From Spirochaetia bacterium (GTDB lineage Bacteria > Spirochaetota > Spirochaetia > SZUA-6 > Bin103), in the NCBI GenBank assembly GCA_965203905.1, contig CBDBDQ010000005.1, forward strand, positions 2,720,001-2,784,000: a stretch of 64,000 bases of DNA, written 5' to 3'. The notes beneath the pieces were generated by a model. It had not been told where the DNA came from, made no database searches, and saw only the letters and a program-made list of their open reading frames with translations. How positions within the stretch are numbered: position 1 is the stretch's first letter; each line of letters starts with the position of its first letter. This document shows, in pieces, positions 30,912 to 49,067 of this stretch. Both the position numbers and the translations under genes were made by a program.

Positions 30912-31079
30912 CGCTGGCCGCTGCATTGCCGCGAGCGCCATGGTGTCGGACTGACGCTGGTCACGGCCGACGGGGATCTGTGCGCCTGCCCCGACATCGA
31001 CGTGCTTCCCGATTCCCCGTAACCGCAGAATCTGACGGCCCCCACGTCCGCCAGAGCCGGGAAACGGGAAACGTGCAAT

Positions 31080-31108
31080 TTGACAGACTGCGACGGGCGG
31101 CGCATAGT
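31080..31108 (+). promoter_or_regulatory. Sigma70-type promoter, leader copy 1
   Basis: TTGACA-N17-CATAGT, conserved in three leaders. Confidence 0.7.
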
Positions 31109-31133
31109 AATTCATTCGGGCCGTTCCGGACTC

Positions 31134-31373
31134 ATGCCGACGAAGCCTCATCATAGCACTCAGCGCCCCCCCCAAAGGGGCGGGCCTCCAAGTATTTGTA
31201 CGAGAAGCATAAACGTACGGGCTGAGTGGGCGCGACGCCATGCGCGCCACGTCACAGCATGCCGCTGGCGTTGCCAGCTACTGCTACCGACACTTGCGCC
31301 GTCGCCGGCCACCGCTCCTCGCGGCGCTCCCGACCCAGGTGCGTGTACGGGTCCAAGGAGGTGCCGCATGTAG
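31134..31373 (+). CDS. Putative leader peptide/uORF copy 1 (79 aa, C8 tract at 31166-31173)
   Basis: MPTKPHHSTQRPP...; N-terminus conserved with 36592 and 45736. Confidence 0.45.
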   Translation: MPTKPHHSTQRPPQRGGPPSICTRSINVRAEWARRHARHVTACRWRCQLLLPTLAPSPATAPRGAPDPGACTGPRRCRM

Positions 31374-31402
31374 ACTCGGGGCTGCCGTTCTCGCTCTCCA
31401 GG

Positions 31403-31480
31403 CACCCGGCGATTGCGGGTGATCTACGAGAGTGGGCGAGGGATGGGCAGTGGCATCAGCACTCTCGAGCATTCAGGAGT
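31403..31480 (+). promoter_or_regulatory. Structured 5' UTR element, copy 1
   Basis: CACCCG/CGGGTG hairpin, then CGAGAGTG (31427-34) / CACTCTCG (31460-67), then SD AGGAG. Confidence 0.55.
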
Positions 31481-31485
31481 CCAGG

Positions 31486-33276
31486 ATGCAATACGTAATC
31501 TTTCGCAAGTTCCTCGCGGTCCTGGTCGGGCTCGTCCTGGCCGCGACCGGCCTCTGGGCGGCTGCCGCACAAGAAGAGCCGGCAGCCGCTATGGAAAAGG
31601 AGATGGTGACCGACCCCACCACCGGCGAGATGGTCACCGCGCCGCAGTATGGCGGGACCTTGATCGCGGCCATGCCGAGCGACCCCGCCGGCTCCGACGC
31701 CTATTTCGGACATCCTACGATGAAGGCGATCGAGCAGGTGTGCGAGATGCTGGCCGGGATTGACTGGGGAGTAGACCGCGACGAGCATGGCTTGAACCGC
31801 ATATACCTCCCCGACATTGCCCTGACCGGAAGGCTGGCCGAACGCTGGGAGATGTCGGCGGACGGTCTCACCCTTACCTTCCACATCCGCCAGGGCGTTC
31901 ACTGGCACGACAAGGCGCCGATGAACGGCCGCGAGCTCACTGCCGAGGATGTCGAATACAACTGGCGCCGCTATACCGGTCTGGGCAGCGGCTTCACCGA
32001 ATTCAGCCCCAACATTGCCCAGTGGTCGGGACTCGACGACTTGGGAATAGCATCGATAACCGCCACCGACCGGTATACGGTCGTCTTTACCCTGGAGCAG
32101 CCCAACCTGCAGGTCCCTCGTGAAATCCTCTGGCCGTACCCAACGTGCATCATGCCGCCCGAGGTGATCGAGCAACACGGCGACGTTACCGACTGGACGA
32201 ACCTGGTCGGCACCGGACCCTTCGAGCTGACCGACTGGGTGGAGGGCAGCTCGCTGAACTTCAAGAAGAATCCCAACTACTGGGGATTTGACGAGAAATA
32301 CCCCGAGAACCGCTTGCCCTATGTTGACCGGTTGCAGGTGATGATCATGCCGGACGAGACCACACGTTTGGCGGCGCTGCGGACCGGCAAGGTCGATTAC
32401 CTGGGTTACCTGCTCTACGCGCACGTAAAGAGCGTCAACACGATAGAGCAGCTCCAGCAGAGCAACCCCGATCTCCAGGTGTTTCCGTTCTACCGAGAGG
32501 CCACCGGTATCGCTCTGTCCGCGCAGAACCCACCCTTCACCGACGTCAGGGTGCGCCACGCCATACAGATGGCACTGGACATCGACACAATAGCCAATAC
32601 CTACTTCAAGGGTTGGTCATTGGGGCCGCCTCAGGGATTCCTGGGGGGTGGGCTGGTCGGGTTTGTTCCCGCATTCGAAGACTGGCCGGAAGAGATCAAG
32701 CAATACTACACCTACGATCCGGCGGGGGCGGAAGCGTTGCTCGATGAGGCCGGCTATCCGCGCGGCGCCGACGGCATCCGCTTCAACGCTGGCATCGACT
32801 TCCGCGACTTGTATGATCTTGGCCATTACGAGTTGGCCGTAGCCCAGCTTGGCGAGATCGGCGTTGAGGTAGAGCTGAAGCCAATGGATACGGGTACTTG
32901 GGCCGGCCGTCTCCGGGAACATACCTATGATGGCATGACCTCGGAACACGTTGGGTTCGAGCACAGCATCGGCATGCTGGGACAGAACACCTCGGCCTCG
33001 ACGTGGAACCCCGCCGGTGTGCAAGACCCGGCGTATGACGCCCTGGCTGCAGCCGTCCTGTCCGCTGCTACCCAGGAGGAGCTGAGGGGGCGGGTTGAAG
33101 AGGCGTTCATGTACCTGACCGAGAACCATTGGCACGTATGGCTCGGGAGAGCGCCGCTGTTCTCCGTGGTTCAACCCTGGGTCATCGGCTACAACGGTGA
33201 AGTTGCGCAGGAGAGCGGGGTCATCCTGGGCCGCGTCTGGATTGACCAGGATATGAAAAAAGAGATGGGCTTCTAG
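31486..33276 (+). CDS. Family-5 ABC substrate-binding protein (cassette 1)
   Basis: VTDPTTGEMVTAPQYGG, RQGVHWHDKAPMNGRELTA, VGTGPF, LLDEAGYPRGADG. Confidence 0.9.
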   Translation: MQYVIFRKFLAVLVGLVLAATGLWAAAAQEEPAAAMEKEMVTDPTTGEMVTAPQYGGTLIAAMPSDPAGSDAYFGHPTMKAIEQVCEMLAGIDWGVDRDEHGLNRIYLPDIALTGRLAERWEMSADGLTLTFHIRQGVHWHDKAPMNGRELTAEDVEYNWRRYTGLGSGFTEFSPNIAQWSGLDDLGIASITATDRYTVVFTLEQPNLQVPREILWPYPTCIMPPEVIEQHGDVTDWTNLVGTGPFELTDWVEGSSLNFKKNPNYWGFDEKYPENRLPYVDRLQVMIMPDETTRLAALRTGKVDYLGYLLYAHVKSVNTIEQLQQSNPDLQVFPFYREATGIALSAQNPPFTDVRVRHAIQMALDIDTIANTYFKGWSLGPPQGFLGGGLVGFVPAFEDWPEEIKQYYTYDPAGAEALLDEAGYPRGADGIRFNAGIDFRDLYDLGHYELAVAQLGEIGVEVELKPMDTGTWAGRLREHTYDGMTSEHVGFEHSIGMLGQNTSASTWNPAGVQDPAYDALAAAVLSAATQEELRGRVEEAFMYLTENHWHVWLGRAPLFSVVQPWVIGYNGEVAQESGVILGRVWIDQDMKKEMGF

Positions 33277-33309
33277 GAAGCGCCAGCTCTACGGAAGAGT
33301 GGGTGTCAA

Positions 33310-33352
33310 GGGACCGGGAGGCTGTCGTTTGCGGACGCGCCTCCCGGCTCCC
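33310..33352 (+). terminator. Stem-loop between SBP and dppB
   Basis: GGGA-CCGGGAGGC...GCCTCCCGG-CTCCC; homologous to 38903-38946. Confidence 0.6.
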
Positions 33353-33384
33353 GCTGCCGGTAAACCAGCAATGACGAGTGTCAC

Positions 33385-34386
33385 ATGAGGGCGTACATCA
33401 TCCGGCGGTTGTTGCTGACCATCCCCACCCTGTTCCTATTGACCATCCTGGTCTTTCTCTCCGTTCGCTTTCTTCCCGGCGACGTCATAGACACCATGGT
33501 GTCCGAATCGTCGGTGTACGGGGACGTCATGGACCGTGCGGCGTTCGAGCGTATGCTGGGATTGGATGTGCCGGTATACGTGCAGTATGGACGCTGGATC
33601 GGCGTGCTCTCGACCCCTGACTGGCGTACCGGTGAGTCCCACTTCAGAGGTCTCCTGCAGGGCAGCCTCGGCCGCTCACTGGTGGGCGGCCGGTTGCCGG
33701 TGGAGCGGAAGATAGTCGGTCGATTGCCGGTGACCATCGAGCTCGGGGTCATGTCCATCATCCTCGGGCTGCTGATCGCGCTGCCGGTGGGCATCTACGC
33801 GGCGATTCGTCAGGACACGGCGGCCGACTACGCGGGTCGTTCGTTCGCCATCATCGGCCTGGCGACGCCCAACTTCTGGCTGGCGACCATGGTGATGATC
33901 TACCCGGTCGTCTGGTGGAGCTGGTCGCCACCGATGCAGTGGGTCAGGTTCACGGAAGACCCGCTGGAGAATCTGGGGGTGTTCATCATCCCCAGCCTGA
34001 TTGTGGGAACGGGCATGGCCGCTGCCACCATGCGGATGACGCGCACCATGATGCTGGAGGTGCTCAGGCAGGATTTTGTCAGGACCGCGTGGTCCAAGGG
34101 ACTGCGGGAGCGGGTCGTCGTCATGCGGCACGCCGTCAAGAATGCCCTGATCCCGGTGGTTACGCTGATCGGTCTGCAGTTGCCGATCGTGGTCGGCGGC
34201 GCCGTCATCATGGAGAACATCTTCAACCTGCCGGGACTGGGCCGGGTCATGGTGCTTGCTCTCAGTGAGCGAGACTACCCGGTGGTGTCGGGGATAAACC
34301 TGTTGTTCGCCGCCGCGGTCGTGGCGATCAATCTGCTGATCGATCTGCTCTATCCGTACCTGGACCCCAGGGTCCGCTATGCCTAG
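33385..34386 (+). CDS. DppB-like permease (cassette 1)
   Basis: MRAYIIRRLL, QDFVRTAWSKGL, LDPRVRY. Confidence 0.9.
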   Translation: MRAYIIRRLLLTIPTLFLLTILVFLSVRFLPGDVIDTMVSESSVYGDVMDRAAFERMLGLDVPVYVQYGRWIGVLSTPDWRTGESHFRGLLQGSLGRSLVGGRLPVERKIVGRLPVTIELGVMSIILGLLIALPVGIYAAIRQDTAADYAGRSFAIIGLATPNFWLATMVMIYPVVWWSWSPPMQWVRFTEDPLENLGVFIIPSLIVGTGMAAATMRMTRTMMLEVLRQDFVRTAWSKGLRERVVVMRHAVKNALIPVVTLIGLQLPIVVGGAVIMENIFNLPGLGRVMVLALSERDYPVVSGINLLFAAAVVAINLLIDLLYPYLDPRVRYA

Positions 34387-35314
34387 CAGTTCGAATACAG
34401 CCGGAGTTGCGCCACGGGCTGCCAGAGAACGGCAAAAGCCTGCTGCGTTCTTTGCCCGACTGTGGCGGGAGAAGCCACTGGGCAGCGCCTGCGGGATCAT
34501 CATACTGATACTGATTCTGGTCAGTATCCTGGCCGATGTTCTGGCTCCGTACGATCACATGGAACCACACCCGTCCGACATTCTGCAGGGCCCGTCAGCC
34601 AAGTATCTCCTGGGCACCGACTACGTGGGGCGGGACTTCTTGAGCCGCATCATCCACGGCGCCCGGCTGTCGTTGGCCGTCGGTCTGGCGGCGACCACGC
34701 TGAATGTTGTGGTCGCGGTGCTGATCGGCGGTACCTCTGGGTTCTTTGGCGGCAAGCTGGATCTGGCTGTGCAGCGATTCGTCGACGCCTGGATGGCGTT
34801 TCCCGGGCTGCTCCTGTTGCTGACCGTAATGTCGATCGTGGGGCGGGGCATGCTGCAGATCATCGTGGTCCTGGGGATAACGGGGGGCATCGTCGGCTCG
34901 AGAACGGTCAGAGGCGCCGTCATCGACATAAAGGAGAACACCTATTTCCACGCGGCACAGTCGATCGGCTCCGCCGGATGGCGAACCTTCATTCGCCACG
35001 TGCTGCCCAATATCGCGCCGGTGGTTATCGTCATATTCACCATCAACATCGGCGGTGTGATCATCAGTGAGGCGTCGTTGAGCTTTCTCGGCTTCGGTCT
35101 GCCGCCGAGCGTGCCGAGCTGGGGCGCCATGCTGAGCCGGGAAGGGCGCCAGTTCATGGAGATTGCCCCATGGCTGGCGCTCTGGCCAGGTCTGTGCCTG
35201 ACTGTCGTGGTGTACAGCCTGAACATGTTCGGCGACGCGCTGCGCGATCTGCTCGATCCCCGGCTGCACGGCGGCGCCGGCCGTCTCGACGCCCGCGGCT
35301 CATCTCCCGGCTGA
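34379..35314 (+). CDS. DppC-like permease (cassette 1)
   Basis: LGTDYVGRD, HVLPNI, GDALRDLLDPR. Confidence 0.9.
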   Translation: MPSSSNTAGVAPRAARERQKPAAFFARLWREKPLGSACGIIILILILVSILADVLAPYDHMEPHPSDILQGPSAKYLLGTDYVGRDFLSRIIHGARLSLAVGLAATTLNVVVAVLIGGTSGFFGGKLDLAVQRFVDAWMAFPGLLLLLTVMSIVGRGMLQIIVVLGITGGIVGSRTVRGAVIDIKENTYFHAAQSIGSAGWRTFIRHVLPNIAPVVIVIFTINIGGVIISEASLSFLGFGLPPSVPSWGAMLSREGRQFMEIAPWLALWPGLCLTVVVYSLNMFGDALRDLLDPRLHGGAGRLDARGSSPG

Positions 35315-35488
35315 CCCGTGGTCGATGGCCCGGGAGCCTGCGTTGCCGTTGAACGGCCCCTGGTACGCCGAGCGCCCGATAGGCGAGGGCCGGATTGCGA
35401 ATGTGCACTTCAAGACAGAGACCGCGCACGGCAAACCACCGTGGTGGTGCTCGCCGTTTCGTTCGCCTACGTGATGTAGCGGGCGAGG

Positions 35489-36457
35489 TCAGCCGCCAGA
35501 TGATCGGCGGAGCGCGGCAAGGAAATCGGCCTCATCGGCGCAGCCGAGGGCCGCTGTCAGCAGCGCCGCCTCCGACGCCGTGGCGAACGCCTCCGCATCC
35601 GCAGAGAAACCCTCCGACACCGCAATGCCCCGCGACTGCAGAATCTGGCGGACCATCCGTGCACGACCTTGCGCCAAGCCGCGCTCGAACCCCTGGCGCC
35701 GTTGCGAGCGCAGCAGCGGGTCGTCGTCCGGGCCGGTGCCTTCGCGCGCGCCGAGCGCCGCGGCAACCCGCTCCACGGCCGCGCTCGTTTGCGCTGACGG
35801 CACCGGTTCGTTCAGCGCCAGGTGAATCTCTTCGGCCTGCCAGCCGGGAAACGCCCGGCTCGCAGCCGCAACCCGGAACCGGCCACGCTCCAGCAGATGG
35901 ATCGTCAGCCCCGAGGGGCGCCGGTGCGGACGGCTCGGGGACGGCGCGTCCGGCACCTCCACCCACACTTCCGGGAATCCCCACGATTCGTACAGCGCGA
36001 GCTTGCCGCGGTGGACGTCGGTGGTGTGATCCACCTCCAGCACCACGTCGGGAAAGTCGTCCTCGCCCACCACCATGGCTGCGGGCCCCGGCTTGGCCCG
36101 CTCCGGATGCAGGTACACCGACTCGTCGGCCTGCATGATGCGCCGCGGTTCGCCGCCGGAGTCGCGCAGCAGCAGGTCCATCGAGCCGTACGATTCGATC
36201 GGCGAGCCGCGCACTCCCGCGATCCGCTCGGCCAGGCGCGTCACCAGGCGCGACGGCCGCTCGTGATAGGGAGTGGTGGGGTCGCAGATCCAGGCGGTCT
36301 CGGTGGCCGCATCCCAATACTCGAGCCGCCCCTCGAAGCGCTCGATCTCGGTGCGCGGCAGGTGCACCGGCTTGCAGCCGGGGAACGCCGGCGGCTGGGC
36401 GTGCCGGGGTTGGGCTGCCGCGTGGCGCCCGGATGGCGGTGCTTCGGTGCTGGCCAT
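35489..36457 (-). CDS. Uma2-family PD-(D/E)XK endonuclease
   Basis: QADESVY, PDVVLEVD, KLALYESWGFPEVW, SRAFPG. Confidence 0.85.
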   Translation of the reverse strand: MASTEAPPSGRHAAAQPRHAQPPAFPGCKPVHLPRTEIERFEGRLEYWDAATETAWICDPTTPYHERPSRLVTRLAERIAGVRGSPIESYGSMDLLLRDSGGEPRRIMQADESVYLHPERAKPGPAAMVVGEDDFPDVVLEVDHTTDVHRGKLALYESWGFPEVWVEVPDAPSPSRPHRRPSGLTIHLLERGRFRVAAASRAFPGWQAEEIHLALNEPVPSAQTSAAVERVAAALGAREGTGPDDDPLLRSQRRQGFERGLAQGRARMVRQILQSRGIAVSEGFSADAEAFATASEAALLTAALGCADEADFLAALRRSSGG

Positions 36458-36538
36458 GACGCCATGGTAGGCCATCTCGCGCGCGCATGCAAACCGAACG
36501 TTCCAGATCCGCCAGAGCCGGGAAGCGTAAACGTGCAA

Positions 36539-36567
36539 TTGACAGTGCGCGGCGGGCGGTGCACAGT
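36539..36567 (+). promoter_or_regulatory. Sigma70-type promoter, leader copy 2
   Basis: TTGACA-N17-CACAGT. Confidence 0.7.
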
Positions 36568-36591
36568 AGAGCGATCAGGGACTCTTGCCTC

Positions 36592-36966
36592 ATGCCGACG
36601 ACGCTCGACCATAGCACTCAGCGCTGTCACCAGTTGACGCAGTTGGTTACGTCCCCCCCCCCCCCCCCCCCCGGCAACTCTTTATACAATAATCCATTAA
36701 CACTAACCGCCCCGGCTGATCGTCCCGTACGCGACCTCGCGTTCGCCGTCGCTTTCACCACCGCCGTAGCTATGGCTGGCGCCGCCTCGATCCATCGCCG
36801 AACCGGCATGCGGGCCGCCCGCCACGCGCAGCCCACCCGACAAATACGGCAAGCACCCGGACCAGGGCCTACGGGCCTACCTACAGAAATGGAGGTGCAA
36901 AATGATACTCAAAGAACCGCACCACGCGCGCGGCCCGAGTTCATAACGCTCATGCCGCGCGCGTGA
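36592..36966 (+). CDS. Putative leader peptide/uORF copy 2 (124 aa) containing the C20 tract
   Basis: MPTTLDHSTQRCHQLTQLVTSPPPPPPG...LTAPADRPVRD. Confidence 0.5.
   Translation: MPTTLDHSTQRCHQLTQLVTSPPPPPPGNSLYNNPLTLTAPADRPVRDLAFAVAFTTAVAMAGAASIHRRTGMRAARHAQPTRQIRQAPGPGPTGLPTEMEVQNDTQRTAPRARPEFITLMPRA
36653..36672 (+). repeat. C20 homopolymer (slipped-strand tract)
   Basis: 20 consecutive C; the only run of this length seen in the window. Confidence 0.9.
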
Positions 36967-36995
36967 CCACCAGGGATTGCCACCGCTGTCTGGAC

Positions 36996-37075
36996 GCCTG
37001 CGTTGCGGGCGCGAGAGTGGCAGGGAAAAGGCAACTCGCTCGGAGAGCACTCTCAGAATCTCAGATATGGGAGAG
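36996..37075 (+). promoter_or_regulatory. Structured 5' UTR element, copy 2
   Basis: GCCTGC-GTT-GCGGGC, GAGAGTG (37013-19) / CACTCTC (37048-54), SD GGGAGAG. Confidence 0.55.
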
Positions 37076-37081
37076 ATCAGT

Positions 37082-38893: not shown

Positions 38894-38902
38894 AGAAAGA
38901 AA

Positions 38903-38946
38903 GGGAGCTGGGAGGCTGTCGCCTGCAGGCGCGCTTCCCAGCTCCC
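38903..38946 (+). terminator. Stem-loop between SBP and dppB
   Basis: GGGAGCTGGGAGGC...GCTTCCCAGCTCCC. Confidence 0.65.
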
Positions 38947-38949
38947 AAC

Positions 38950-38988
38950 GAGATTGCCACGCCTCCATGAATCCAGGCTCGCAATGAC
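38950..38988. repeat. Partial REP-like element
   Basis: GAGATTGCCACG...CTCGCAATGAC resembles a widespread bacterial intergenic palindromic repeat (from recall, not searched). Confidence 0.4.
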
Positions 38989-39003
38989 GGGGAGTAATGT
39001 GAC

Positions 39004-40011
39004 ATGAGAGCCTATCTCATCAGGAGGTTATTGCTCATAATTCCCACCTTGTTTATCTTGAGCATCCTGGTCTTTCTCTCGGTCCGCTTCATCCCGGGCG
39101 ATGTAATAGACACAATGGCGGCTAGGATGGCAGAGACGGGGGCGCTGGCATTCAAGATTGATCGTGAAGCTCTAGAGCAAATGCTGGGATTAGACGTGCC
39201 TGTCTACGTGCAGTATGGACGCTGGACAGGGGTGTCGCCAACCCCCGACTTTGTTACCAAGGAGTCTCACTTCAACGGTCTCCTCCAGGGCAGCCTTGGT
39301 GAATCACTGATGAGCTCTTTTACGGTAGAAGAGAAGATAATGGGCAGATTGCCAGTAACCATTCAGCTTGGTGTCATGGCAATCGTAATTGGGCTCGTGA
39401 TAGCGCTTCCGGTCGGCATCTACTCGGCGATGCGCCAGGATACCGCCGCCGACTACCTGGGGCGCTCGATCGCCATCCTCGGCCTGGCAACTCCCAACTT
39501 CTGGCTGGGACTTTTGGTCGTGCTCTACCCCGCCATCTGGTGGGGCTGGTCGCCGCCGATGGAGCTGATTCCTCTTGCCGAAGACCCGCTGGGGAATCTC
39601 CGGATGTTTCTCATTCCCAGCTTGATTGTGGGCACGGCCTCGGCTGCCGCCACCATGCGGATGACGCGCACCATGATGCTGGAGGTGCTCAGGCAAGACT
39701 ATATCAGGACCGCCTGGGCCAAGGGTCTCAGGGAGCGGGTGGTCGTCATGCGGCACGCCGTCAAGAACGCACTCATCCCGGTGGTTACCCTGATCGGCCT
39801 GCAGTTGCCGATCCTGATCGGTGGCTCGGTCATCATGGAGAACATATTCAACCTGCCGGGGTTGGGTCGTCTCATGGTGGTTGCGCTGAAAGATCGAGAC
39901 TATCCGGTGGTCTCCGGGGTCAACCTGTTCTTCGCCACCGCGGTGGTGCTGTTCAATCTCCTGATCGACCTGCTCTATTCCTGGCTGGACCCGAGGGTGC
40001 GGTATGAATGA
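39004..40011 (+). CDS. DppB-like permease (cassette 2)
   Basis: MRAYLIRRLL, QDYIRTAWAKGL. Confidence 0.9.
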   Translation: MRAYLIRRLLLIIPTLFILSILVFLSVRFIPGDVIDTMAARMAETGALAFKIDREALEQMLGLDVPVYVQYGRWTGVSPTPDFVTKESHFNGLLQGSLGESLMSSFTVEEKIMGRLPVTIQLGVMAIVIGLVIALPVGIYSAMRQDTAADYLGRSIAILGLATPNFWLGLLVVLYPAIWWGWSPPMELIPLAEDPLGNLRMFLIPSLIVGTASAAATMRMTRTMMLEVLRQDYIRTAWAKGLRERVVVMRHAVKNALIPVVTLIGLQLPILIGGSVIMENIFNLPGLGRLMVVALKDRDYPVVSGVNLFFATAVVLFNLLIDLLYSWLDPRVRYE

Positions 40012-40891
40012 GGCGCGCGGCCAGTTTGCCGATTTCTTCGGCAGGTTGTGGCGGCAGAAGCCCCTGGGCATCGCCAGCGGGATCGTCATCTTGATCCTGA
40101 TTCTGTTGGCGATCTTCGCCGATGCTCTGGCCCCCTATCCCGTCGATCAACTGAACCTGGCAGAAAGGCTGCAGGGCTCATCGACCCGCCATCTGCTGGG
40201 GACCGACCAGTTGGGCCGCGACCAGTTGAGCCGGCTGCTGGTCGGGGCACGGATCTCGCTGGTCGTTGGTCTGGCGGCGACCACGCTGAACGTGGTGGTC
40301 GCCACCCTGATCGGTGGCACCTCCGGATTCCTCGGGGGCAAGCTGGACCTGGCCGTGCAGCGGTTCGTCGATGCCTGGATGGCGTTCCCGGGGCTGCTGC
40401 TGTTGCTCACGATCATGTCGGTTGCGGGGCAGGGTCTGCCACAGATCATCGTGGTGCTGGGGATCGCCGGTGGCGTGGGCGGCTCGCGCGTGGTCAGAGG
40501 CGCGGTGGTGGCCACCAAGGAGAACGATTTTTTTCTGGCCGCCCGGGCGGTCGGCGCGCCGACGCGACAGGTCCTGGTGCGCCACGTCCTGCCCAACATC
40601 GTCGCGCCGCTGATCATCGTCTTCAGCATCAACGTCGGCGGCGTCATTCTGGCCGAGGCGAGCTTGAGCTTTCTCGGGTTCGGGCTGCCCGTCAGTGTCC
40701 CCAGCTGGGGAGGGATGCTCAGCCGGGAGGGGCGGCGGTTCATGGAGCAGGCGCCGTGGCTGGCGCTGTGGCCCGGGCTGTGCCTGACGATTGTGGTGTA
40801 CAGCTTCAACATGTTGGGTGATGCGATGCGGGACCTGCTCGATCCGCGGCTGCGCGGCGGGGGGCGTCTGGCTGCCGGCGGCGCCACGTAG
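40004..40891 (+). CDS. DppC-like permease (cassette 2)
   Basis: LGTDQLGRD, GDAMRDLLDPR. Confidence 0.9.
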   Translation: MNEARGQFADFFGRLWRQKPLGIASGIVILILILLAIFADALAPYPVDQLNLAERLQGSSTRHLLGTDQLGRDQLSRLLVGARISLVVGLAATTLNVVVATLIGGTSGFLGGKLDLAVQRFVDAWMAFPGLLLLLTIMSVAGQGLPQIIVVLGIAGGVGGSRVVRGAVVATKENDFFLAARAVGAPTRQVLVRHVLPNIVAPLIIVFSINVGGVILAEASLSFLGFGLPVSVPSWGGMLSREGRRFMEQAPWLALWPGLCLTIVVYSFNMLGDAMRDLLDPRLRGGGRLAAGGAT

Positions 40892-41329
40892 CCAGCGCGA
40901 CGCACCCCATGCGGCTCCCTAGTCGTGATGTCCCGCAGGTGGGTCTTGCCCGAGATGTTTTGCGCTCGATCACTCCGCCGCCGGCCGTCTTCGGCTGCGC
41001 GGCCCCGCCCTGCCGACCCGTGCGTGTGCGGCCGACCGGCAACCCGCGGGTCACGCCGATTACTTTGAGAGGCGCTCGGCTGAGTATTGATTTCCGCACT
41101 GGTCTCCTTACGCTGACCTGACACTGATGGCACATGGGCCAGCCCATTGCGGCACAGCCTGAAGACATACCGATGCGGCGCTACCCGCGCCTCGCTGGGA
41201 TGTCCGCCGTGAGGCAGACGTGGGCGGTGAACGGCCTGCGGCCGGCCACATCGCCGGCGAATGACGCCTCTGGTAGGGGCGATGCGGCGCCCTGAGGGGG
41301 CTCTCGGCTGCCGCGGCTGCCCAAATCTG

Positions 41330-41500
41330 GGGACGCGCCTGGATCGGAGTGGACCGCGGCGAGCTTGCAGGCCGAGCGGATCCTGAATGAGAAGCGTCGC
41401 CATCGCGAAAGCTCATTCGACGCCCATCCGACCCCCGGAGCGGGTCTCACTCACCTGGATCTGCGCTACTTCGAGGACGAATACCTACCGCGGGCGATTG
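41330..41500 (+). pseudogene. Fragment of an AlbA/Schlafen-domain ATP-binding regulator-like gene
   Basis: GRAWIGV then frameshift to ERILNEKRRHR..FDAHP....LDLRYFEDEYLPRA; no start and no C-terminal part. Confidence 0.45.
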
Positions 41501-41604
41501 TGGATGAACACTGGTTCGACGGCCCGAACAGCCGTTCCGGCGTGACGCTACTCTCCCAATCGGTGTATGCTGTGATCATCCGGGGTGGATGAGGTGATGA
41601 CGGC

Positions 41605-41976
41605 ATGAGCGGCGACACCATCGCGGTGCTGGGCGTCGGAGTGACGCTGCTGGGGGCGATCCTGACGTTCGGCTTCGCGGTGCTGGGCGCGCACCGCACG
41701 ACGCAGGCTATCCTGAACGCCCGCATGGACCGCATGGATCAGCGCATGGGCCGCATGGATCAGCGCATGGACCGCATGGATCAACGCTTCGACCGCGTGG
41801 AAGGGCTGTTGAACGATCTGCGGCGAGACGTGACGGATATCGACCGCCGCCTGTCGCGCATCGAAGGAGCGGTGTTGGGGCCGTGGCGCCCCGAGCCGCC
41901 TACAGAGCCGCCGCCGGAGCGGGAAGCGCGCCAGGAGCCGGTGCCGGCGGCCGGCACCGGCAGCCCCCGGCAATAG
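41605..41976 (+). CDS. Small membrane-anchored coiled-coil protein
   Basis: N-terminal TM helix, RMDRMDQ x3 (21-bp repeats at 41722-41784), RLSRIEG; GAGGTG RBS. Confidence 0.75.
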   Translation: MSGDTIAVLGVGVTLLGAILTFGFAVLGAHRTTQAILNARMDRMDQRMGRMDQRMDRMDQRFDRVEGLLNDLRRDVTDIDRRLSRIEGAVLGPWRPEPPTEPPPEREARQEPVPAAGTGSPRQ

Positions 41977-42052
41977 ACCGCAAGGGAGCACGCATGGCGG
42001 CGGACGACACCGCCGCCGCCGAACCGATTTTTCCGCATCACCGGGCGCACCG

Positions 42053-42150
42053 GCCCTGACAGGGCAGTTGGCGGAAAGCTGGTCGCAGCTCGACCCGCTG
42101 ACGTCTTTCGTCCAAGTTCGCCAGGGCGTTCACTGGCTGATAAGCCCCCA
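42053..42150 (+). pseudogene. About 100-bp internal fragment of a family-5 SBP gene
   Basis: ALTGQLAESWSQLDPLTSFVQVRQGVHW then frameshift to DKPP; matches SBP cassettes 1-3. Confidence 0.8.
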
Positions 42151-42230
42151 GTATTAAGGTTAAGGGATATGCGGATACGACACCTTGTGGGCTGCCAGAG
42201 CCGCGTGGCGCTGCGCTCGCTGTGACGGGA

Positions 42231-43643
42231 TCAGGCCATTCCGGCTGGAGCGTCGTGCGGCTGAGCGAGCAGGTCTTCGAGGAAGCACATGGTCTTCAGT
42301 ACGCCAACGTCGTCGCGCTGGTTACCGATGATCTGCAGGCCGATCGGCAGGCCGAGTCCGGTCTTGCCGACGCACACGGTACCCGCCGGGTTGCGCGTCA
42401 TGTTGATACCGTACGTGAAAGCGACCCAGCCGTCCGTCTCTTTGCCGTTGATCGTGCCGGAGGCCGAACCGGCCTTGGGAGTCTGGCCGCACGTGGTCGG
42501 CGTGAGGATGAAGTCTCCTGCCTGGAACGCGTCGACCAGCTTGGCGTTCAGATAGTGACAGGCATCGAGCGCCCGGGCGTAATCGACTCCGCTGACGTTT
42601 TCCATGCCGTGCTCGATCTGAGGTTTGAGCCCCTCGTCGATCTGGTCCCATTGCGGTGTGCCGCGCAGATCACCCTGAACTCGCGCACGGGATGCGGACC
42701 AGAACTGGTACCATGGTCCGCGGGGATCCTCTTCCCAGATGGTCTCACGCATGACCACGTCGACACCTGCGCCTCGGAGAGCCGAAATGGCCGCTTCGCA
42801 CTGCTGCATGATCTCCGAGTCGACCGTGGCGAATCCCATCGTCGGCGACCAGACGACGCGCCGCGGCCTGTTGTGCCGGTTCAGTGCGGTACGCCAGGAT
42901 TCGGCCGGCCGGGGCATCGAAAAGATGTCGGTCGGTTCGTGCTCCAGGACGGCATCCAGCGTATAGGCGACGTCACGAACCCGAAGTGCCATCGGCCCCT
43001 TGACGCTCAGGATCCCCGATCCGGGTGGGGACTTGCCACCGGCCGGCACCCGCCCCTGGCTTGGCTTGATGCCGCTGAATCCGCAGACCGACGCAGGAAT
43101 GCGAATGGAACCTCCGCCATCCGATCCGGTGCCCAGCGGGATCATGCCCGAGGCGAGCGCCGCCGCCGTTCCACCAGATGAACCTCCCGGACTGTAATCC
43201 GGGTTCCAGGGATTGCGCGTCGCCCCGAATGGCCGGTTGTCGGTCACTCCCTTGAAACCGAACTCGGGTGTGTTCGTCTTGCCCAGGATCACGCAACCAG
43301 CCTCGCGCAGCAGCGCGACCAGAACCGAGTCGTGTTGTGCGGGTGCGTCGTTGGCGTGCAGTTCGGCGCCGTAGGTCGTGACGAATCCGCGCGCATCCTC
43401 GAGATCCTTGACGCCTATCGGAATGCCGGCCAGCGGCCCTACCGGATCACCGTGCTTCAGGCGCGCATCGATCGCGTCGGCTTGCGCCAATGCATCCTCG
43501 AAGTTCACCGCGCAGAACGCGTTCAGCCGCGGGTTCAACGACTCGATGTTGCCGATTGCGGCTTGCGTCAAGTCACGAGCTGAGACCCGTCGCGAAAACA
43601 CGGCACCGACGAGTTGCTCAACCGTCGTCTCACGAAAGTCCAT
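42231..43643 (-). CDS. Amidase signature family protein
   Basis: GVKDL, GKTNTPEFG, PGGSSGG, GSDGGGSIRIPAS. Confidence 0.92.
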   Translation of the reverse strand: MDFRETTVEQLVGAVFSRRVSARDLTQAAIGNIESLNPRLNAFCAVNFEDALAQADAIDARLKHGDPVGPLAGIPIGVKDLEDARGFVTTYGAELHANDAPAQHDSVLVALLREAGCVILGKTNTPEFGFKGVTDNRPFGATRNPWNPDYSPGGSSGGTAAALASGMIPLGTGSDGGGSIRIPASVCGFSGIKPSQGRVPAGGKSPPGSGILSVKGPMALRVRDVAYTLDAVLEHEPTDIFSMPRPAESWRTALNRHNRPRRVVWSPTMGFATVDSEIMQQCEAAISALRGAGVDVVMRETIWEEDPRGPWYQFWSASRARVQGDLRGTPQWDQIDEGLKPQIEHGMENVSGVDYARALDACHYLNAKLVDAFQAGDFILTPTTCGQTPKAGSASGTINGKETDGWVAFTYGINMTRNPAGTVCVGKTGLGLPIGLQIIGNQRDDVGVLKTMCFLEDLLAQPHDAPAGMA

Positions 43644-43717
43644 GCAGGAGGAACCTCCGGCTTCCTCGCGGCTTTGTCAACGCACGTGGCGCCCACGGCG
43701 CCCCACGCGCCCAGGAC

Positions 43718-43843
43718 CTACCGGAACGCGGCGTAGTCCGGGCCGAGGAAGCCGGCGGCGATCTTGAGCTTAAGTACTTCGTCGGTACCCTCGTAGATGC
43801 GGCACACGCGCACGTCCTTGAGGTGGCGGCTGGGCCGGTAGAT
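43718..43843 (-). pseudogene. C-terminal remnant of an acyl-CoA dehydrogenase
   Basis: IYRPSRHLKDVRVCRIYEGTDEVLKLKIAAGFLGPDYAAFR*. Confidence 0.75.
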
Positions 43844-43850
43844 CGGGGGG

Positions 43851-43891
43851 AAACCACCGTGGTGGTGATGTAGCGGGCGAGATCAGCCGCC
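43851..43891 (-). pseudogene. 3' end and downstream flank of a second Uma2 copy
   Basis: Matches 35433-35497 with an internal deletion between GTG repeats. Confidence 0.75.
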
Positions 43892-44315
43892 GTGGACAGG
43901 GAAGAGGTTTATCGAACCGCCGTCTTGCGTCAGCCGAAACGATCCGCAGTGATTTACACGGGAGAGATTCCTGATGGAACGGCCGTTGTCTTGTGAACCC
44001 GGTGTCGAGCGGTTACGCGTTTGATCCGCTCCAGGGGCTTGTCGTAGTTCAAGCCGAGGTATTCGGCCGGCGGGGGAGTATCGTGCTGCAGCTCGCCCTG
44101 GACACCGGCGCTACTGGAACCATGATCAACGTCGGACCGCTTGCAGCCGTAGGGTATGACCCGTCGTTGCAGACTGAACGGATCCAGGTCACGACTGGAA
44201 GCGGCGTAGAATAGAATATGCTCCGAGGATCTCTGTCGTCCGCATGAAGGCGATTGGTCACGAGCGGACGAACTTTCCGGTCCTCGCTCATACTCTGCCT
44301 CCAAGCACGAGCGTC
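43892..44315 (+). pseudogene. Broken small-protein plus retroviral-like aspartyl protease pair
   Basis: DREEVYR...YTGEIPDGTAVVL* then LALDTGAT motif; TAGAA duplication near 44207-44216 creates stop/frameshift; 3' end truncated. Confidence 0.7.
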
Positions 44316-44408
44316 CTCGCCCACCACCATGGCCGCGGCCTCGGCAGCCTGACCTGCGCCGGGTGCAGGTACACCGACTCGTCGGCCTGCATGATGCGCC
44401 GCGGTTCC
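44312..44408 (-). pseudogene. Internal Uma2 fragment
   Basis: EPRRIMQADESVYLHP, nearly identical to 36058-36151. Confidence 0.85.
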
Positions 44409-44556
44409 CCGCTATGGAACAACTCATCGTTGAACGTGCATGCGCTCGACGGCTGCGCCGGCATCACGCAGGTGCGGGTCGCAACAGCAAGGCGGCCGAG
44501 CTTCCAACATCTCATCGTTTAGAAGCGTCGGCGAACCATACCCCGTAGAACAGGGT

Positions 44557-45540
44557 ATGGCCGGCGAGATCTCCAAGCCCCACGATCACCTGTTTCGCTC
44601 CGTATTCGGAGAAGACAAGGAAGCCGAGGCGGCCAGCCTGCTGCAGGCCTGCCTGCCGCCGGCGGTCAGCCGCGAATTGCTGTGGTCGAGCCTCAAGTGG
44701 CAGTCTGTGAGCTTCATCGACGACCGCCTGCGCGACAGCGAATCGGACCTGCTGTACGCGATCCGTCGCACCGCCGACGGCGCCTCGGCGTGGCTGTACG
44801 TGCTGCTGGAGCACCAGTCGACCCCGGACCCGTGGTTGCGGCTGCGGCTGCTGAAGTACAGCATCCGGATCTGGGAACGCGATCGGCAGCGGCATCCGCA
44901 GGAGCAACAGTTGCGCCCGATCGTGCCGCTGGTGCTGTATCAGGGCGGGCGCGTGTGGCGTGAAGCGCGTGAGTTCGCGGAGCTGTTTTCCGAGGTGGTG
45001 CGGGATTGGCCGGGAGTGCCGCGCTACGCGCACCTGTTGATCGATCAGACGCAGGCCGGACCGGAGGAGTTGCGCGGGGAGCTGCTCGGTCGCATCGCGC
45101 AACTGGCGATGATGGCGGCGTACCGGGCGAGCTGGCCGGTGTTGCAGCGGCTGGTGCCGCTGCTGGCGGAGTTGGCGCAGGCAGGCGGCAGCGAAGACCT
45201 GCAGCGGATCGTGGTGTACATTGCGGCCACGACACGGGAGCCGAAGCGCTGGCACCGATTCGCGGAGGCAGTCCGTCGCCAGGTGCCGGGAGGTGGAGAA
45301 CTGATGAACAAGACCGAGGAGATGATCGAGATATACGGCGACATGAGGGAGCGTGAGGGCCGCCAGGAAGGCCGCCAGGAAGGCGAGTTACGCGGCAAGG
45401 TGCAGACCATCGAGGGTCTCGTGGGACGCGATGTCCCCTGGTCCATCATCGAAGCGGCCACCGGAATCGACCAGGCCACCTTCGACCGGCTCAAGCGCCA
45501 ACTCGACACCGCTGACGGCAGCGCCACCCACTCCAACTAA
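44557..45540 (+). CDS. Rpn/YhgA-like recombination-promoting nuclease (Transposase_31)
   Basis: PHDHLFR, SFIDDRL...SDLLY, LLEHQSTPD, PIVPLVLY, EGRQEGRQEG. Confidence 0.9.
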   Translation: MAGEISKPHDHLFRSVFGEDKEAEAASLLQACLPPAVSRELLWSSLKWQSVSFIDDRLRDSESDLLYAIRRTADGASAWLYVLLEHQSTPDPWLRLRLLKYSIRIWERDRQRHPQEQQLRPIVPLVLYQGGRVWREAREFAELFSEVVRDWPGVPRYAHLLIDQTQAGPEELRGELLGRIAQLAMMAAYRASWPVLQRLVPLLAELAQAGGSEDLQRIVVYIAATTREPKRWHRFAEAVRRQVPGGGELMNKTEEMIEIYGDMREREGRQEGRQEGELRGKVQTIEGLVGRDVPWSIIEAATGIDQATFDRLKRQLDTADGSATHSN

Positions 45541-45566
45541 ACCACGCCCCCGCTGTCCCTGGCTTC

Positions 45567-45650
45567 CGGATGGCGGTGCTTCGGTGCCGGCGATGGCGCC
45601 AGCGCACCCCATCTCGCGCGCGTATTGAAACTGAACGTTCCAGATCAGCC
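45567..45650 (-). pseudogene. 5' remnant and upstream region of the second Uma2 copy
   Basis: CCGGATGGCGGTGCTTCGGTGC...CCATCTCGCGCGC...GAACGTTCCAGATC matches 36429-36510. Confidence 0.8.
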
Positions 45651-45682
45651 GGGAGCCGGCAACGCATCGAAAAAACGTGAGA

Positions 45683-45711
45683 TTGACAGTGCACGGCGGG
45701 CGGTGCATAGT
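45683..45711 (+). promoter_or_regulatory. Sigma70-type promoter, leader copy 3
   Basis: TTGACA-N17-CATAGT. Confidence 0.7.
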
Positions 45712-45735
45712 AGAGCGCTCAGGGATTCTTGGCTC

Positions 45736-45981
45736 ATGCCGACGACGCTCGACCATAGCACTCAGCGCTGTCACCCAGTTGACGCAGTTGGTTACTTCGC
45801 CCCCACCCACCCGGCCCCCACTTTTTCGAACCGAGAACAACTAACCGCTCCGGCTGATCGCCCCGTACGCGACCCCGCGCACGCCGTCGCGTTCACTACC
45901 GCCGTACCTGTCGGTGGCGCCGGCTACGGAAAACGGCAGTGCAAGGTGGTACTCAAAGAACCGCACGCACGCGCGGCGTGA
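45736..45981 (+). CDS. Putative leader peptide/uORF copy 3 (81 aa), interrupted C-tract at 45800-45819
   Basis: MPTTLDHSTQRCHP...LTAPADRPVRD. Confidence 0.5.
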   Translation: MPTTLDHSTQRCHPVDAVGYFAPTHPAPTFSNREQLTAPADRPVRDPAHAVAFTTAVPVGGAGYGKRQCKVVLKEPHARAA

Positions 45982-46042
45982 GCCGGGGTGAACCCGACGA
46001 GTTACACGCCGCGCGCTTCTGAGAACCTGACTCAAACTGGCA

Positions 46043-46118
46043 GCCCGCGTTGCGGCCCGAGAGTAGCCAGGAGGCGGCAATCCGCTGCGCAATACTCTCG
46101 AAAATCTACATACGGAGT
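46043..46118 (+). promoter_or_regulatory. Structured 5' UTR element, copy 3
   Basis: CCGC-GTT-GCGG, CGAGAGTA (46058-65) / TACTCTCG (46093-100), SD GGAG. Confidence 0.55.
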
Positions 46119-46123
46119 TACGT

Positions 46124-47917: not shown

Positions 47918-48110
47918 GGCACTCGCCGTAGGCGATCTGCAGTGGATCCCGCTCTTGGGTGGGGTCCACGAATCCGACTACGTCGGCACGGTCACTCCGT
48001 GACAGGAAGACCATGAACGGCGATGCGCAGGTATCGCCCGCCGGTCAGCTTTTTTGGACCAGGCGCCGGGAGCCTTGAGCTTCCCGGCGCCGCCCGTTTT
48101 ACACGAAGAT

Positions 48111-49067
48111 ATGAGAGCCTACATCATCCGGCGGCTGCTGCTGGTCATCCCCACCCTGCTCATATTGAGCATCCTCGTCTTTCTCTCGGTCCGCTTCATC
48201 CCCGGCGACGTAATAGATGCGATGTTTGGTGACCTGCAATACATGGGTGCGGGTATCGACCGTGCAGCGTTCGAGCGCCGGCTGGGACTCGACGTGCCTG
48301 TCTACGTGCAGTATGGACGCTGGCTAGGGGGTGTTTTCCTGCACGGCACGCTGGGCGAATCACTGATGTACGGTTGGCCGGTAGAGGAGAAGTTGCTCGG
48401 CAGATTGCCGTTGACCATTCAGCTTGGCGTCATGGCAATCGTGATCGGGCTGTTGATCGCCCTCCCCGTCGGCATCTACTCGGCGATTCGCCAGGATACG
48501 GCCGCCGACTACCTGGGGCGCTCCATCGCCATCGTCGGCCTGGCTACGCCGAACTTCTGGCTCGGACTCATGGTCATGCTGTTCCCGGCACTCTGGTGGG
48601 GCTGGTCGCCACCGGTGTTGTGGGTTCCGTTCGCCGAAGACCCGCTGGGGAACCTGGGGGTGCTCCTCATTCCCAGCCTGATCTTGGGGACGGCCTCGGC
48701 TGCAGCCACCATGCGGATGACGCGCACCATGATGCTGGAGGTGCTGCGGCAGGATTTTGTCAGGACCGCCTGGTCCAAGGGACTGAGGGAGCGGGTCGTG
48801 GTCATGCGGCACGCCATCAAGAATGCCCTCATCCCGGTTGTCACGCTGATCGGTCTGCAGTTGCCGATCCTGGTGGGGGGCGCCGTGATCATGGAGAACA
48901 TATTCAACCTGCCGGGGCTCGGGCGTCTCATGGTGCTGGCCCTCGAGCAGAGGGACTACCCGGTGGTCTCCGGGGTAAACTTGTTGTTCGGCACCGCGGT
49001 GGTGCTGTTCAATCTCCTGATCGACCTGATTTACCCCTTCTTTGATCCAAGAGTCCGCTATGAATGA
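48111..49067 (+). CDS. DppB-like permease (cassette 3)
   Basis: MRAYIIRRLL, QDFVRTAWSKGL. Confidence 0.9.
   Translation: MRAYIIRRLLLVIPTLLILSILVFLSVRFIPGDVIDAMFGDLQYMGAGIDRAAFERRLGLDVPVYVQYGRWLGGVFLHGTLGESLMYGWPVEEKLLGRLPLTIQLGVMAIVIGLLIALPVGIYSAIRQDTAADYLGRSIAIVGLATPNFWLGLMVMLFPALWWGWSPPVLWVPFAEDPLGNLGVLLIPSLILGTASAAATMRMTRTMMLEVLRQDFVRTAWSKGLRERVVVMRHAIKNALIPVVTLIGLQLPILVGGAVIMENIFNLPGLGRLMVLALEQRDYPVVSGVNLLFGTAVVLFNLLIDLIYPFFDPRVRYE

Follow-up and report, generated by a model that had tools for sequence, protein, structure and literature searches.

A high-copy family of modular 5' leaders with a short upstream reading frame, conserved RNA hairpins and C-rich repeats stands before a transporter gene family in a sponge-associated spirochaete

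A 64,000-nt stretch of the genome of a Spirochaetia bacterium (GenBank assembly GCA_965203905.1, contig CBDBDQ010000005.1, positions 2,720,001 to 2,784,000; hereafter the window) carries three transporter operons, each preceded by a long 5' leader. These three leaders, L1, L2 and L3, at about 31050-31485, 36500-37081 and 45640-46123, are copies of a family of 400-650-nt 5' leaders, not a trio, and the family stands before nearly every member of an approximately 48-copy family of operons made up of an SBP_bac_5 binding-protein gene and two permease genes. Each leader is a mosaic whose parts are, in order, a promoter-like module A, a C-rich repeat, module B and a block of about 200 nt, module C. 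Within module C lie hairpins P2 and P3, which are real RNA hairpins, and a short upstream open reading frame (uORF) led by a Shine-Dalgarno sequence, here called the mini-ORF, which seems to be real and under selection, its translation being predicted.

When used as blastn queries against the window's own genome (G000; 7.99 Mb, 66% G+C, five contigs, 98.7% complete, 7.9% contamination), L1, L2 and L3 gave 7, 45 and 51 matching pieces. The pieces resolve into three modules: A, the promoter and ATG region; B, a stretch that can be read as LTAPADRPVRD; and C, the last ~200 nt before the gene. Using a profile scan, 44 module-C loci were found in this genome, 40 of them with a paralogue of the binding-protein genes no more than 500 nt downstream. 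An earlier note on this stretch had described a reusable cassette in front of three operons. Homologues of it were indeed found in the genome and in relatives, at 44 loci in the genome instead of three, and its tie to a transporter repertoire holds: an SBP_bac_5 gene directly follows 42 of the 44 loci (two of these being more distant SBP_bac_5 genes), and a covariance model, R1, built on the P2-P3 region, gave 39 matches in the genome. The remaining two loci are truncated fragments, one of which adjoins a reverse-transcriptase ORF (RVT_1, E 1e-34; L115:1322-2431, G000:C5 ~4845600-4846700) that itself sits about 2 kb upstream of an intact leader; this looks like a retroelement inserted into a leader.

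From the protein side, tblastn with the third binding protein of the window gave 48 matches at 41% identity or more, itself and three truncated copies included. The paralogous binding proteins are 41-52% identical, with the signal peptide and N-terminal linker strongly conserved. Where a start codon could be placed, in 46 paralogues, an L3-like leader is present in 30 and a match to at least one window leader in 37.

The family is confined to one genus among the genomes searched. R1 was applied to 92 genomes of the order (the window's own and 91 others) and matched in eight, all of the window's genus (its own genome and seven of ten others), with no match in the 81 genomes outside it (13 of the sister genus and 68 of other families); BLAST gave the same genus-limited picture. 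Each of three sister genomes holds at least 46 R1 copies. Rfam release 15 gave no match in the whole window at gathering scores, in line with the earlier note, whose author recognised no described element; at E up to 1 over 30900-46300 the sole match was a chance microRNA on the other strand, at 26.6 bits versus a gathering score of 104. Several of 23 public sequencing runs that contain the window stretch are labelled sponge metagenome.

Module C can be grouped into three subtypes, and L1, L2 and L3 each belong to a different one. The main type, represented by L3, displays GGAGGTG, a gap of 5-7 nt and the mini-ORF ATG ATA CTC AAA GAA CCG CAC GCG CGC GCG GCG TGA (MILKEPHARAA), the last 12 nt before the stop forming the 5' arm of a 12-bp GC hairpin, P1. 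After P1 come TGACTC, P2 (CGCCCGC GTT GCGGGCG), P3 (outer GAGAGTA/TACTCTC, inner GGAGCGG/CCGCTCC), an A-rich spacer and a small hairpin with the Shine-Dalgarno sequence mostly in its loop and the gene ATG in its 3' arm. Some main-type leaders carry an insertion of about 22 nt (ACTACGGGCCTGGTTCCCGCTC) in the P1 loop (L007, L012 and L025; G000:C5 near 7565900, 6003600 and 2904750), and others are without a 10-nt piece between two GTGA repeats, the uORF stop being retained. The L2 type begins its mini-ORF as the main type does, has different P1 arms and places the ORF stop in the P1 loop. The L1 type displays AAGGAGGTG followed by ATG and then TAG, or by one to three codons first, and keeps P2 and P3 with P1 absent.

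The mini-ORF is conserved in the manner of a translated sequence. By hand count over 36 distinct copies, the start codon is kept in 33 (ATG in 25, GTG in 6, TTG in 2; a script pattern found 30 of 36), while two copies have none and one is truncated. The same count found GGAGG 5-7 nt upstream and the (I/V)LKEP peptide conserved, with LKEP kept in 26 of the 30 script-parsed copies; the His position is variable, with a stop codon there in some of them. When 70 copies are compared over the six conserved codons, synonymous and non-synonymous pair differences, which are not independent events, stand at 2056:1361 in the mini-ORF frame and at 644:2670 and 435:2820 in the other two, and differences by codon position number 997, 303 and 2117, a clear three-base periodicity. 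For codons 3-6 the entropy is 0.4-0.7 at the third position, 0.0-0.1 at the first and 0.0-0.2 at the second. Inspection by eye of 27 L1-type copies, drawn from five genomes, showed the Shine-Dalgarno sequence and start retained, an ORF of 1-4 codons in most and ATG TAG in nine. Because the L1-type ORF shrinks to a start-stop and yet keeps its Shine-Dalgarno sequence and start, ribosome loading appears to be the conserved function. The nine-base L1-type Shine-Dalgarno sequence is far stronger than those of the genes themselves.

The hairpins were tested with helices taken from the consensus, their pairing being compared with that of slid partner columns and with 500 shuffles; RNAalifold on the alignment of 74 main-type leaders gave a poor, gappy consensus with no compensatory pairs, and the consensus-read helices were used instead. 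Among these 74 leaders six helices are 92.4% paired over 2701 cells, versus 29-63% for slid partners, and changes on both sides occur in 10 pairs and 25 cells (shuffled means 4.7 and 9.5; reached in 0 of 500). Across 39 leaders of all three subtypes, P2 and outer P3 are 93.0% paired, slid partners reaching at most 58%, and 34 cells are changed on both sides (shuffled mean 10.6; 0 of 500). One P2 pair is G-C in 24 of these leaders and A-U in 10; another is U-G in 15, C-G in 10, U-A in 5 and G-C in 2; and the closing pair of P3 is A-U in 18 and G-C in 16. A separate count over 114 leaders agrees with the compensatory changes in P2 and P3. The U-G pairs, which are frequent, are compatible with the + strand alone and thus assign the structures to the sense RNA. 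P1 hardly varies and is hence uninformative on covariation. Module C of L3 folds at -82.6 kcal/mol (z = -3.59), and none of 200 shuffles folds as well. A CUGGC before P2 is complementary to GCCAG inside P3, a candidate pseudoknot, in 91-97% of main-type copies, the bases being nearly invariant.

Upstream of module C, module A is a unit of about 125 nt with TTGACA, a variable second hexamer, the ATG region and a run of TGAC-containing repeats. From TTGACA to ..CCGAGTCG, TGAC recurs about six times per unit at a spacing of 10-15 nt. At some loci the unit stands in tandem in 2-5 copies, with three before G000:C5:3636634 and 6003705 and five at two sister-genome loci (L040 and L106 are sister-genome leaders with tandem arrays); the final unit alone continues into the C-tract. 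The TGAC-bearing tandem units could be stacked promoters or a protein-binding array. In a promoter scan only the L3 unit was called (10 of 12 matches; shuffles average 0.1 sites); that of L2 was not, because its second hexamer has C in place of the required A at position 2. An ACCGGT..ACCGGT hairpin before the C-tract is conserved in many copies, L2 and L3 not being among them. The similarity of L2 and L3 extends about 110 nt upstream of TTGACA (36430-36538 versus 45560-45682: CCGGATGGCGGTGCTTCGGTGC .. CATCTCGCGCGCG .. AACGTTCCAGATC) and is partly common to the orthologue of L3 in the sister genome G004. In L2 it overlaps the 5' end of a minus-strand ORF at 35489-36538 with a weak Uma2 match (E 3e-6), and it may be a duplicated gene start or an upstream control site.

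The C-rich repeat is the hallmark of the family. Of the 50 runs of at least eight C or G in the genome, 18 lie on the sense strand less than 900 nt upstream of a module-C locus and none lies there antisense; the chance expectation, by our own arithmetic from target size, is about 0.1. Between -900 and -150, a run of seven or more C or a tandem repeat of at least 50% C is present in 35 of 46 upstream regions, and a run of seven or more G in none. Homopolymers range from C9 to C16 in other leaders of the genome and are C8 and C20 in the window, while homopolymer-free leaders carry (CCACTCA) x10, (TCCCCTCG) x13, (ACCCGACT) x7 or (CCGCTCA) x7, and C-rich repeats are present even before paralogues without a recognisable module C. 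Repeats long enough for slippage are thus present (C8, C20 and multi-copy short units). As they are of a slipping kind, repeat length should vary, and differences between species fit this: the C20 of L2 is C9-T-C5-T-C6 in its G004 orthologue. Contigs of four public runs, aligned to 36300-39000, matched in short pieces that passed over the C20 tract, and RNA contigs of 90% likeness there could equally stem from paralogous leaders. The C/G ratio is 2-4 over 36591-36798 in L2 (about 200 nt) and 45741-45896 in L3 (about 150 nt), the 99th percentile of the window being 1.94.

In the window the three stretches were aligned with each other and every coordinate was checked by script; all features lie on the + strand. 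Every feature that the earlier note had listed, and their shared order, was recovered in all three leaders. In L1 a promoter-like unit at 31080-31108 (TTGACA 31080-31085, 17 nt, CATAGT 31103-31108), with homologous units found by profile, is followed by a long open frame of 79 codons (31134-31373) that ends at the TAG of the start-stop, and by a sense-strand C8 tract within that frame (31166-31173). The mini-ORF occupies 31355-31373, with its Shine-Dalgarno sequence at 31355-31363, a gap of 4 nt and ATG TAG at 31368-31373. P2 lies at 31403-31421 (CACCCG/CGGGTG) and P3, the conserved stem of the earlier note, at 31428-31466 (GAGAGTG/CACTCTC), both with compensatory changes. The gene start (31475-31488) consists of AGGAG and the ATG of the binding-protein gene at 31486-33276.

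L2 has its promoter-like unit at 36539-36567 (TTGACA 36539-36544, 17 nt, CACAGT 36562-36567), a long open frame of 124 codons (36592-36966) and, within it, the sense-strand C20 tract (36653-36672), which is the exact breakpoint of homology with the G004 orthologue. Module B, C-rich and G-poor, begins with ACTAACCGCCCCGGCTGATCG and covers 36702-36830, its end being approximate. The short uORF (36891-36946) consists of GGAGGTG at 36891-36897 and 14 codons from ATG to TAA at 36902-36946 (MILKEPHHARGPSS); P1 (36923-36965; CACGCGCGCGGC/GCCGCGCGCGTG) has its 5' arm within this uORF and the TAA (36944-36946) in its loop. P2 is at 36995-37011 (CGCCTGC GTT GCGGGCG), P3 at 37013-37054 (GAGAGTG/CACTCTC), and the gene start at 37070-37084, with a Shine-Dalgarno-like GGAGAGA and the ATG of the binding-protein gene at 37082-38893.

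L3 displays the promoter-like unit at 45683-45711 (TTGACA 45683-45688, 17 nt, CATAGT 45706-45711), a long open frame of 81 codons (45736-45981) ending at the short-uORF stop, an interrupted C-tract within it at 45799-45820 (GCCCCCACCCACCCGGCCCCCA) and a C-rich module B at 45840-45925 (end approximate) beginning with ACTAACCGCTCCGGCTGATCG. Its short uORF, GTG to TGA at 45946-45981 (VVLKEPHARAA, 11 codons), has a weakened Shine-Dalgarno sequence. P1 (45969-46016; ACGCGCGGCGTG/CACGCCGCGCGC) holds the uORF TGA in its 5' arm, P2 (46043-46056) is weakened by a one-base deletion, and P3 (46059-46099) pairs GAGAGTA with TACTCTC and, inside, GGCGG with CCGCT. A fourth hairpin, P4 (46109-46126; CATACG GAGTTA CGTATG), holds the Shine-Dalgarno sequence mostly in its loop, the first G closing the 5' arm, and the gene ATG (46124) within its 3' arm. 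In L1, L2 and L3, respectively, the ATG of the long frame (31134, 36592, 45736) follows the second hexamer by 25, 24 and 24 nt, and the stop of the long frame (ending at 31373, 36966 and 45981) precedes P3 by 55, 47 and 78 nt. The frame opens with MPTK..HSTQR in L1 and MPTT..HSTQR in L2 and L3, and LTAPADRPVRD is read in both L2 and L3. Downstream, as the earlier note had it, lie paralogous transporter operons, with three SBP_bac_5 genes each followed by two permease genes (Pfam).

On the evidence of these sequences, the leader may be a Rho-dependent attenuator in which ribosome loading at the mini-ORF modulates termination and repeat length makes the outcome heritably variable. This reading is held tentatively; it could well be right, although it falls somewhat short of probable. 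Transcription would start at module A. The RNAs that Rho classically prefers as ligands are poly(C) and unstructured YC-rich sequences, and for this reason the long untranslated C-rich RNA, repeat and module B together, is taken as a putative Rho loading site. A Rho gene is present in the genome (PF07497, 116 bits, an open frame of 573 codons). Rho would stop transcription within or just after module C unless a ribosome at the mini-ORF blocked it or coupled to the polymerase; such a ribosome might be held on the start-stop or might unwind P1 while terminating, and P2 and P3 may be pause or processing structures. Through slippage, repeat length could set the level of each operon or switch the operon heritably. 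A bolder version is distinctly unlikely: each of about 40 operons would have a hypermutable C-rich repeat whose slippage tunes a Rho site or flips the frame of a poly-proline ORF, single cells would inherit different random subsets or levels of uptake systems, and the repeat would serve as a joint for swaps of promoter units.

Several observations weigh against Rho-dependent attenuation. The mini-ORF lies 200-450 nt downstream of the C-rich tract, which makes its interference with Rho conjectural, and the C-rich zone of L1 is weak, with a C/G ratio of at most 1.6. P1 is missing from the whole L1 type, and CTG stands at the start position in four of five L2-type copies of the window's own genome. 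Most pairs are uninformative in either direction, the helices being nearly invariant, and a structure read from the consensus is favoured over slid controls. When the mini-ORF was held open in silico in 44 copies, accessibility of the gene's Shine-Dalgarno sequence was 0.65 versus 0.65, and of its ATG 0.22 versus 0.23. High conservation of the leaders could come partly from gene conversion among paralogues. 

Control without Rho is a real but unlikely possibility. Module C would then act on translation or mRNA life through a ribosome held at the mini-ORF, or a common protein or small RNA would act on P2/P3 and the ACUC / GGGA motifs, setting all binding-protein genes together. Such control would suit the exceptional strength of AAGGAGGTG, and the ORF's reducibility to a start-stop, which points to ribosome binding as what matters rather than the peptide, as well as the keeping of P3 with an AGGGA motif in its 5' half in all three subtypes, and a gene start codon that is mostly paired in the small hairpin (unpaired probability 0.22). 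Start-stops of E. coli bind ribosomes and damp expression in the portion of the work cited here (10.1101/520783). The same control, however, gives no role to the sense-strand C-rich repeats, no partner RNA or protein for module C was identified, and the modelled gene-start accessibility does not respond to the state of the mini-ORF. Two particular forms were set aside. A simple translational switch was rejected on that unresponsive gene start (folding of 44 copies), and CsrA-type repression was dropped when PF02599 was not found in the genome, 98.7% complete, by a search that was positive in three control genomes.

The long ORF that starts in module A was proposed in the earlier note as a working part, a uORF of 79-124 codons that stays open in all three copies, with indels between L2 and L3 that restore the frame, and whose translation is coupled to transporter expression. 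A sharpened form, in which the ORF is translated through a poly-proline C-tract, stalling at prolines or ribosome cover of module B decides expression and slippage switches the frame, is improbable. In 34 distinct leaders with modules A and B, from the window's genome and four sister genomes, an ATG is present at the aligned site in 28, and most such ORFs reach the C-tract, with up to 19 consecutive prolines encoded (L090). At the start of module B (ACTAACCGCTCCGGCTGATC) a TAA and a TGA close two frames in 23 and 20 of 23 ungapped rows, and the one frame left is open in all 23, which would suit translation through it. Relative to the ATG, however, the frame of module B is 0, +2 and +1 in 17, 10 and 7 of the 34 leaders. 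The long ORF passes module B in exactly 17, and otherwise has 2-43 codons and mostly ends soon after the C-tract. The earlier note had named random uORF frames in homologous leaders as an outcome that would refute it, and this mixture is such an outcome. A phase-variable switch would be expected to produce the same mixture. A share of 17 in 34 for one frame exceeds one third only weakly (binomial tail 0.033), among copies that are related to one another. The long frame stays open no further than expected from composition and chance.

Orthologues of the long ORF are out of frame. The G004 orthologue of L3, whose binding protein is 94% identical, aligns throughout with an indel at the C-rich tract and has an ORF of 30 codons versus 81, and in the G004 orthologue of L2 the ORF ends before module B, at roughly 40 codons versus 124 (hand translation of the alignment). 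A coding pattern is likewise absent. Over the opening 16 codons, entropy at the three codon positions (1.14, 1.26 and 1.28 in order) shows no periodicity, and synonymous to non-synonymous changes stand at 676:2281 in frame and at 748:2284 and 773:2053 out of frame. In module B, read in the long-ORF frame, the third position varies least (0.40 versus 0.66 and 0.51), and neither of the other two frames has so low a synonymous share (0.22). Between two orthologous versions of 140 codons there are 6 synonymous and 18 non-synonymous changes, a balance not superior to that in the other frames. The ATG also has no Shine-Dalgarno sequence at the usual distance, in tandem arrays the upstream promoter-plus-ATG units would read into the next promoter, and a Pfam search with the long-ORF translations, those of L1, L2 and L3 included, gave no family. 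On these comparisons the long ORF does not look like a conserved coding unit and would be an open frame left by C-rich composition. A ribosome starting at its ATG may matter by where it stops rather than by what it makes.

A classical leader-peptide attenuator is likewise improbable. In such a device P1 would form when no ribosome is present and P2 would be a terminator without a U-tail, whereas a ribosome at the stop within P1 would free the P1 3' arm to pair with the P2 3' arm, giving read-through. The parts stand in textbook order, with a Shine-Dalgarno-led short ORF, a hairpin over its end and a second GC hairpin, and when the mini-ORF region is kept open, the folds that were read (e.g. 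L007) do show P1 pairing into P2 through its 3' arm. The bases of this alternative pairing never vary, however, and lend it no covariation support. There is no U-run after P2 or P3, a scan of 36400-37100 and 45550-46140 for + strand intrinsic terminators found none in L2 or L3, the mini-ORF peptides (MILKEPHARAA, its variants or a start-stop) contain no run of one regulatory amino acid, and the L1 type has no P1 and yet keeps P2 and P3.

Conservation and exchange among the copies bear on whether any device is needed at all. Averaged over pairs of 27 main-type copies, identity stands at 0.69-0.83 between -180 and -60, at 0.56-0.61 around the start codon, at 0.72-0.81 between +30 and +180, and at about 0.45 beyond, protein motifs excepted, so that a conserved block spans the start codon from about -190 to about +180. 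In sister genome G007 the orthologue of the second binding protein (87% identity) is preceded by a module C of the main type, and modules A and B of L2 have no alignable counterpart there. The G004 orthologue of L2 is 97% identical over 161 nt of module C and almost free of mismatches through module B, whereas upstream of the C-tract it is unrelated, a different module A being joined there. Judged from these alignments, leaders are exchanged independently of genes. That there is no special device, only a gene family whose 5' ends have recently undergone duplication and gene conversion, with the repeats as neutral debris, would account for the conserved block (identity 0.56-0.83, lowest at the start codon) and for the modules swapped between orthologues (L2 versus L148 and L036), but is very improbable given the synonymous excess only in the mini-ORF frame, the compensatory changes in P2 and P3 across subtypes and species, the strict strand-specificity of the C-rich repeats (18 sense, 0 antisense) and the persistence of the design in seven or more other genomes of the genus alongside protein divergence to 41-52% identity.

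Additional information can be drawn from the genes around the leaders. The three operons (31486-35314, 37082-40891 and 46124-49986) consist by Pfam of a binding protein and two permeases only. With no gene for an ABC ATPase downstream in any of the three, the ATPases must come from other loci and are perhaps shared. A YhgA-like transposase gene (Transposase_31) at 44440-45540 ends about 140 nt before the L3 promoter, and an AAA-ATPase_like / PDDEXK_9 gene at 29325-30911 ends about 170 nt before that of L1. An amidase gene on the minus strand (42231-43643; PF01425, E 1.5e-98) is convergent with the second operon and may act on the substrate of the second transporter. Relatives of the binding proteins were also found at L041 (OZ242383.1), 86% identical to the third, and at L062 (OY761144.1), 70% identical to the second and in a metagenome-assembled genome titled Dehalococcoidia. 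Upstream of the 86% relative the DNA is AT-rich and unrelated, with only TAACCGCTC-N4-CTGATC kept. These relatives suggest gene transfer between co-resident bacteria.

The leaders form an undescribed cis-regulatory RNA family of unusually high copy, 39-44 in a genome and, in each of three sister genomes, at least 46, and place one control design before an entire repertoire of peptide-type uptake systems in an uncultured, sponge-associated lineage. Conserved mini-ORFs including start-stops, structured leaders and simple-sequence repeats, usually studied apart, are joined in it. If the C-rich repeats were length-variable Rho sites, they would offer a new route to heritable cell-to-cell diversity in nutrient uptake, and slipping repeats would make of the family a contingency-locus system for metabolism rather than surface antigens, acting via termination in the leader. 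Even otherwise, dozens of natural variants are provided for testing how mini-ORFs and start-stops act in bacteria. In the open-access literature searched, no paper was found for the string 'MILKEP', nor anything on such leaders in work on sponge symbionts, spirochaetes or binding proteins.

Several known systems share parts of the design. The trp, his and leu attenuators have a short leader ORF overlapping the first of several hairpins; unlike them, the present leaders have no runs of regulatory codons and no U-tailed terminator, and the genes downstream are uptake systems. Leaders in which a uORF controls Rho-dependent termination include those of tnaC and Salmonella mgtA. Others are E. coli toiL-topAI and Salmonella corA, as described in the cited portions of PMC12121999 and PMC5314796. 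As far as those portions go, they share with the present family a long 5' leader, a short uORF, a C-rich region (here a putative Rho loading region) and control after initiation, which is inferred here. Here, by contrast, about 40 operons belonging to a single gene family share one design, a simple repeat (up to C20 in the window) makes up the C-rich region, Rho dependence is predicted, and the ORF, which can be a bare start-stop, neither overlaps nor adjoins the C-rich region but follows it downstream.

The 'upstream homology box' of Borrelia (erp-type genes) and the pneumococcal BOX are promoter or operator DNA or dispersed repeats without a fixed partner gene. Like them, the family has a block shared across paralogues and is modular, with a variable number of middle units; unlike them, it is a transcribed, structured leader with a mini-ORF of predicted translation and is fixed to one gene family. 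Homopolymer tracts are also known near the fim promoters of Bordetella and the tpr promoters of Treponema pallidum. Simple-repeat phase variation is documented at contingency loci, e.g. in Neisseria, in the cited portions of PMC5084427, PMC13742949 and PMC7864442. Judged against those portions, the likeness is that many members of a surface or uptake family carry long homopolymers or repeats of short units in their control regions; the known tracts lie in the promoter spacer or the gene, whereas here they lie in the transcribed leader and are always C-rich on the sense strand, and length variation is known here from between-species differences alone.

The E. coli yecJ start-stop binds ribosomes and lowers expression of its host gene, according to the cited portion of 10.1101/520783. 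The L1 type resembles it in having a Shine-Dalgarno sequence, a start codon and an immediate stop. In E. coli, as that portion describes them, start-stops lie within genes and are single, whereas here the start-stop belongs to a 5' leader, precedes the gene by about 115 nt, shows conservation between species and is interchangeable with the 11-codon ORF of sister leaders. The kind of device is a known one, a leader with a short ORF and hairpins and probably under termination control. New, as far as Rfam and the open-access literature searched show, are the family itself, its copy number and its fixed link to one transporter family and, within the same scope, the tandem promoter units, the obligatory sense-strand C-rich simple repeat and the way in which an 11-codon ORF and a start-stop replace each other.

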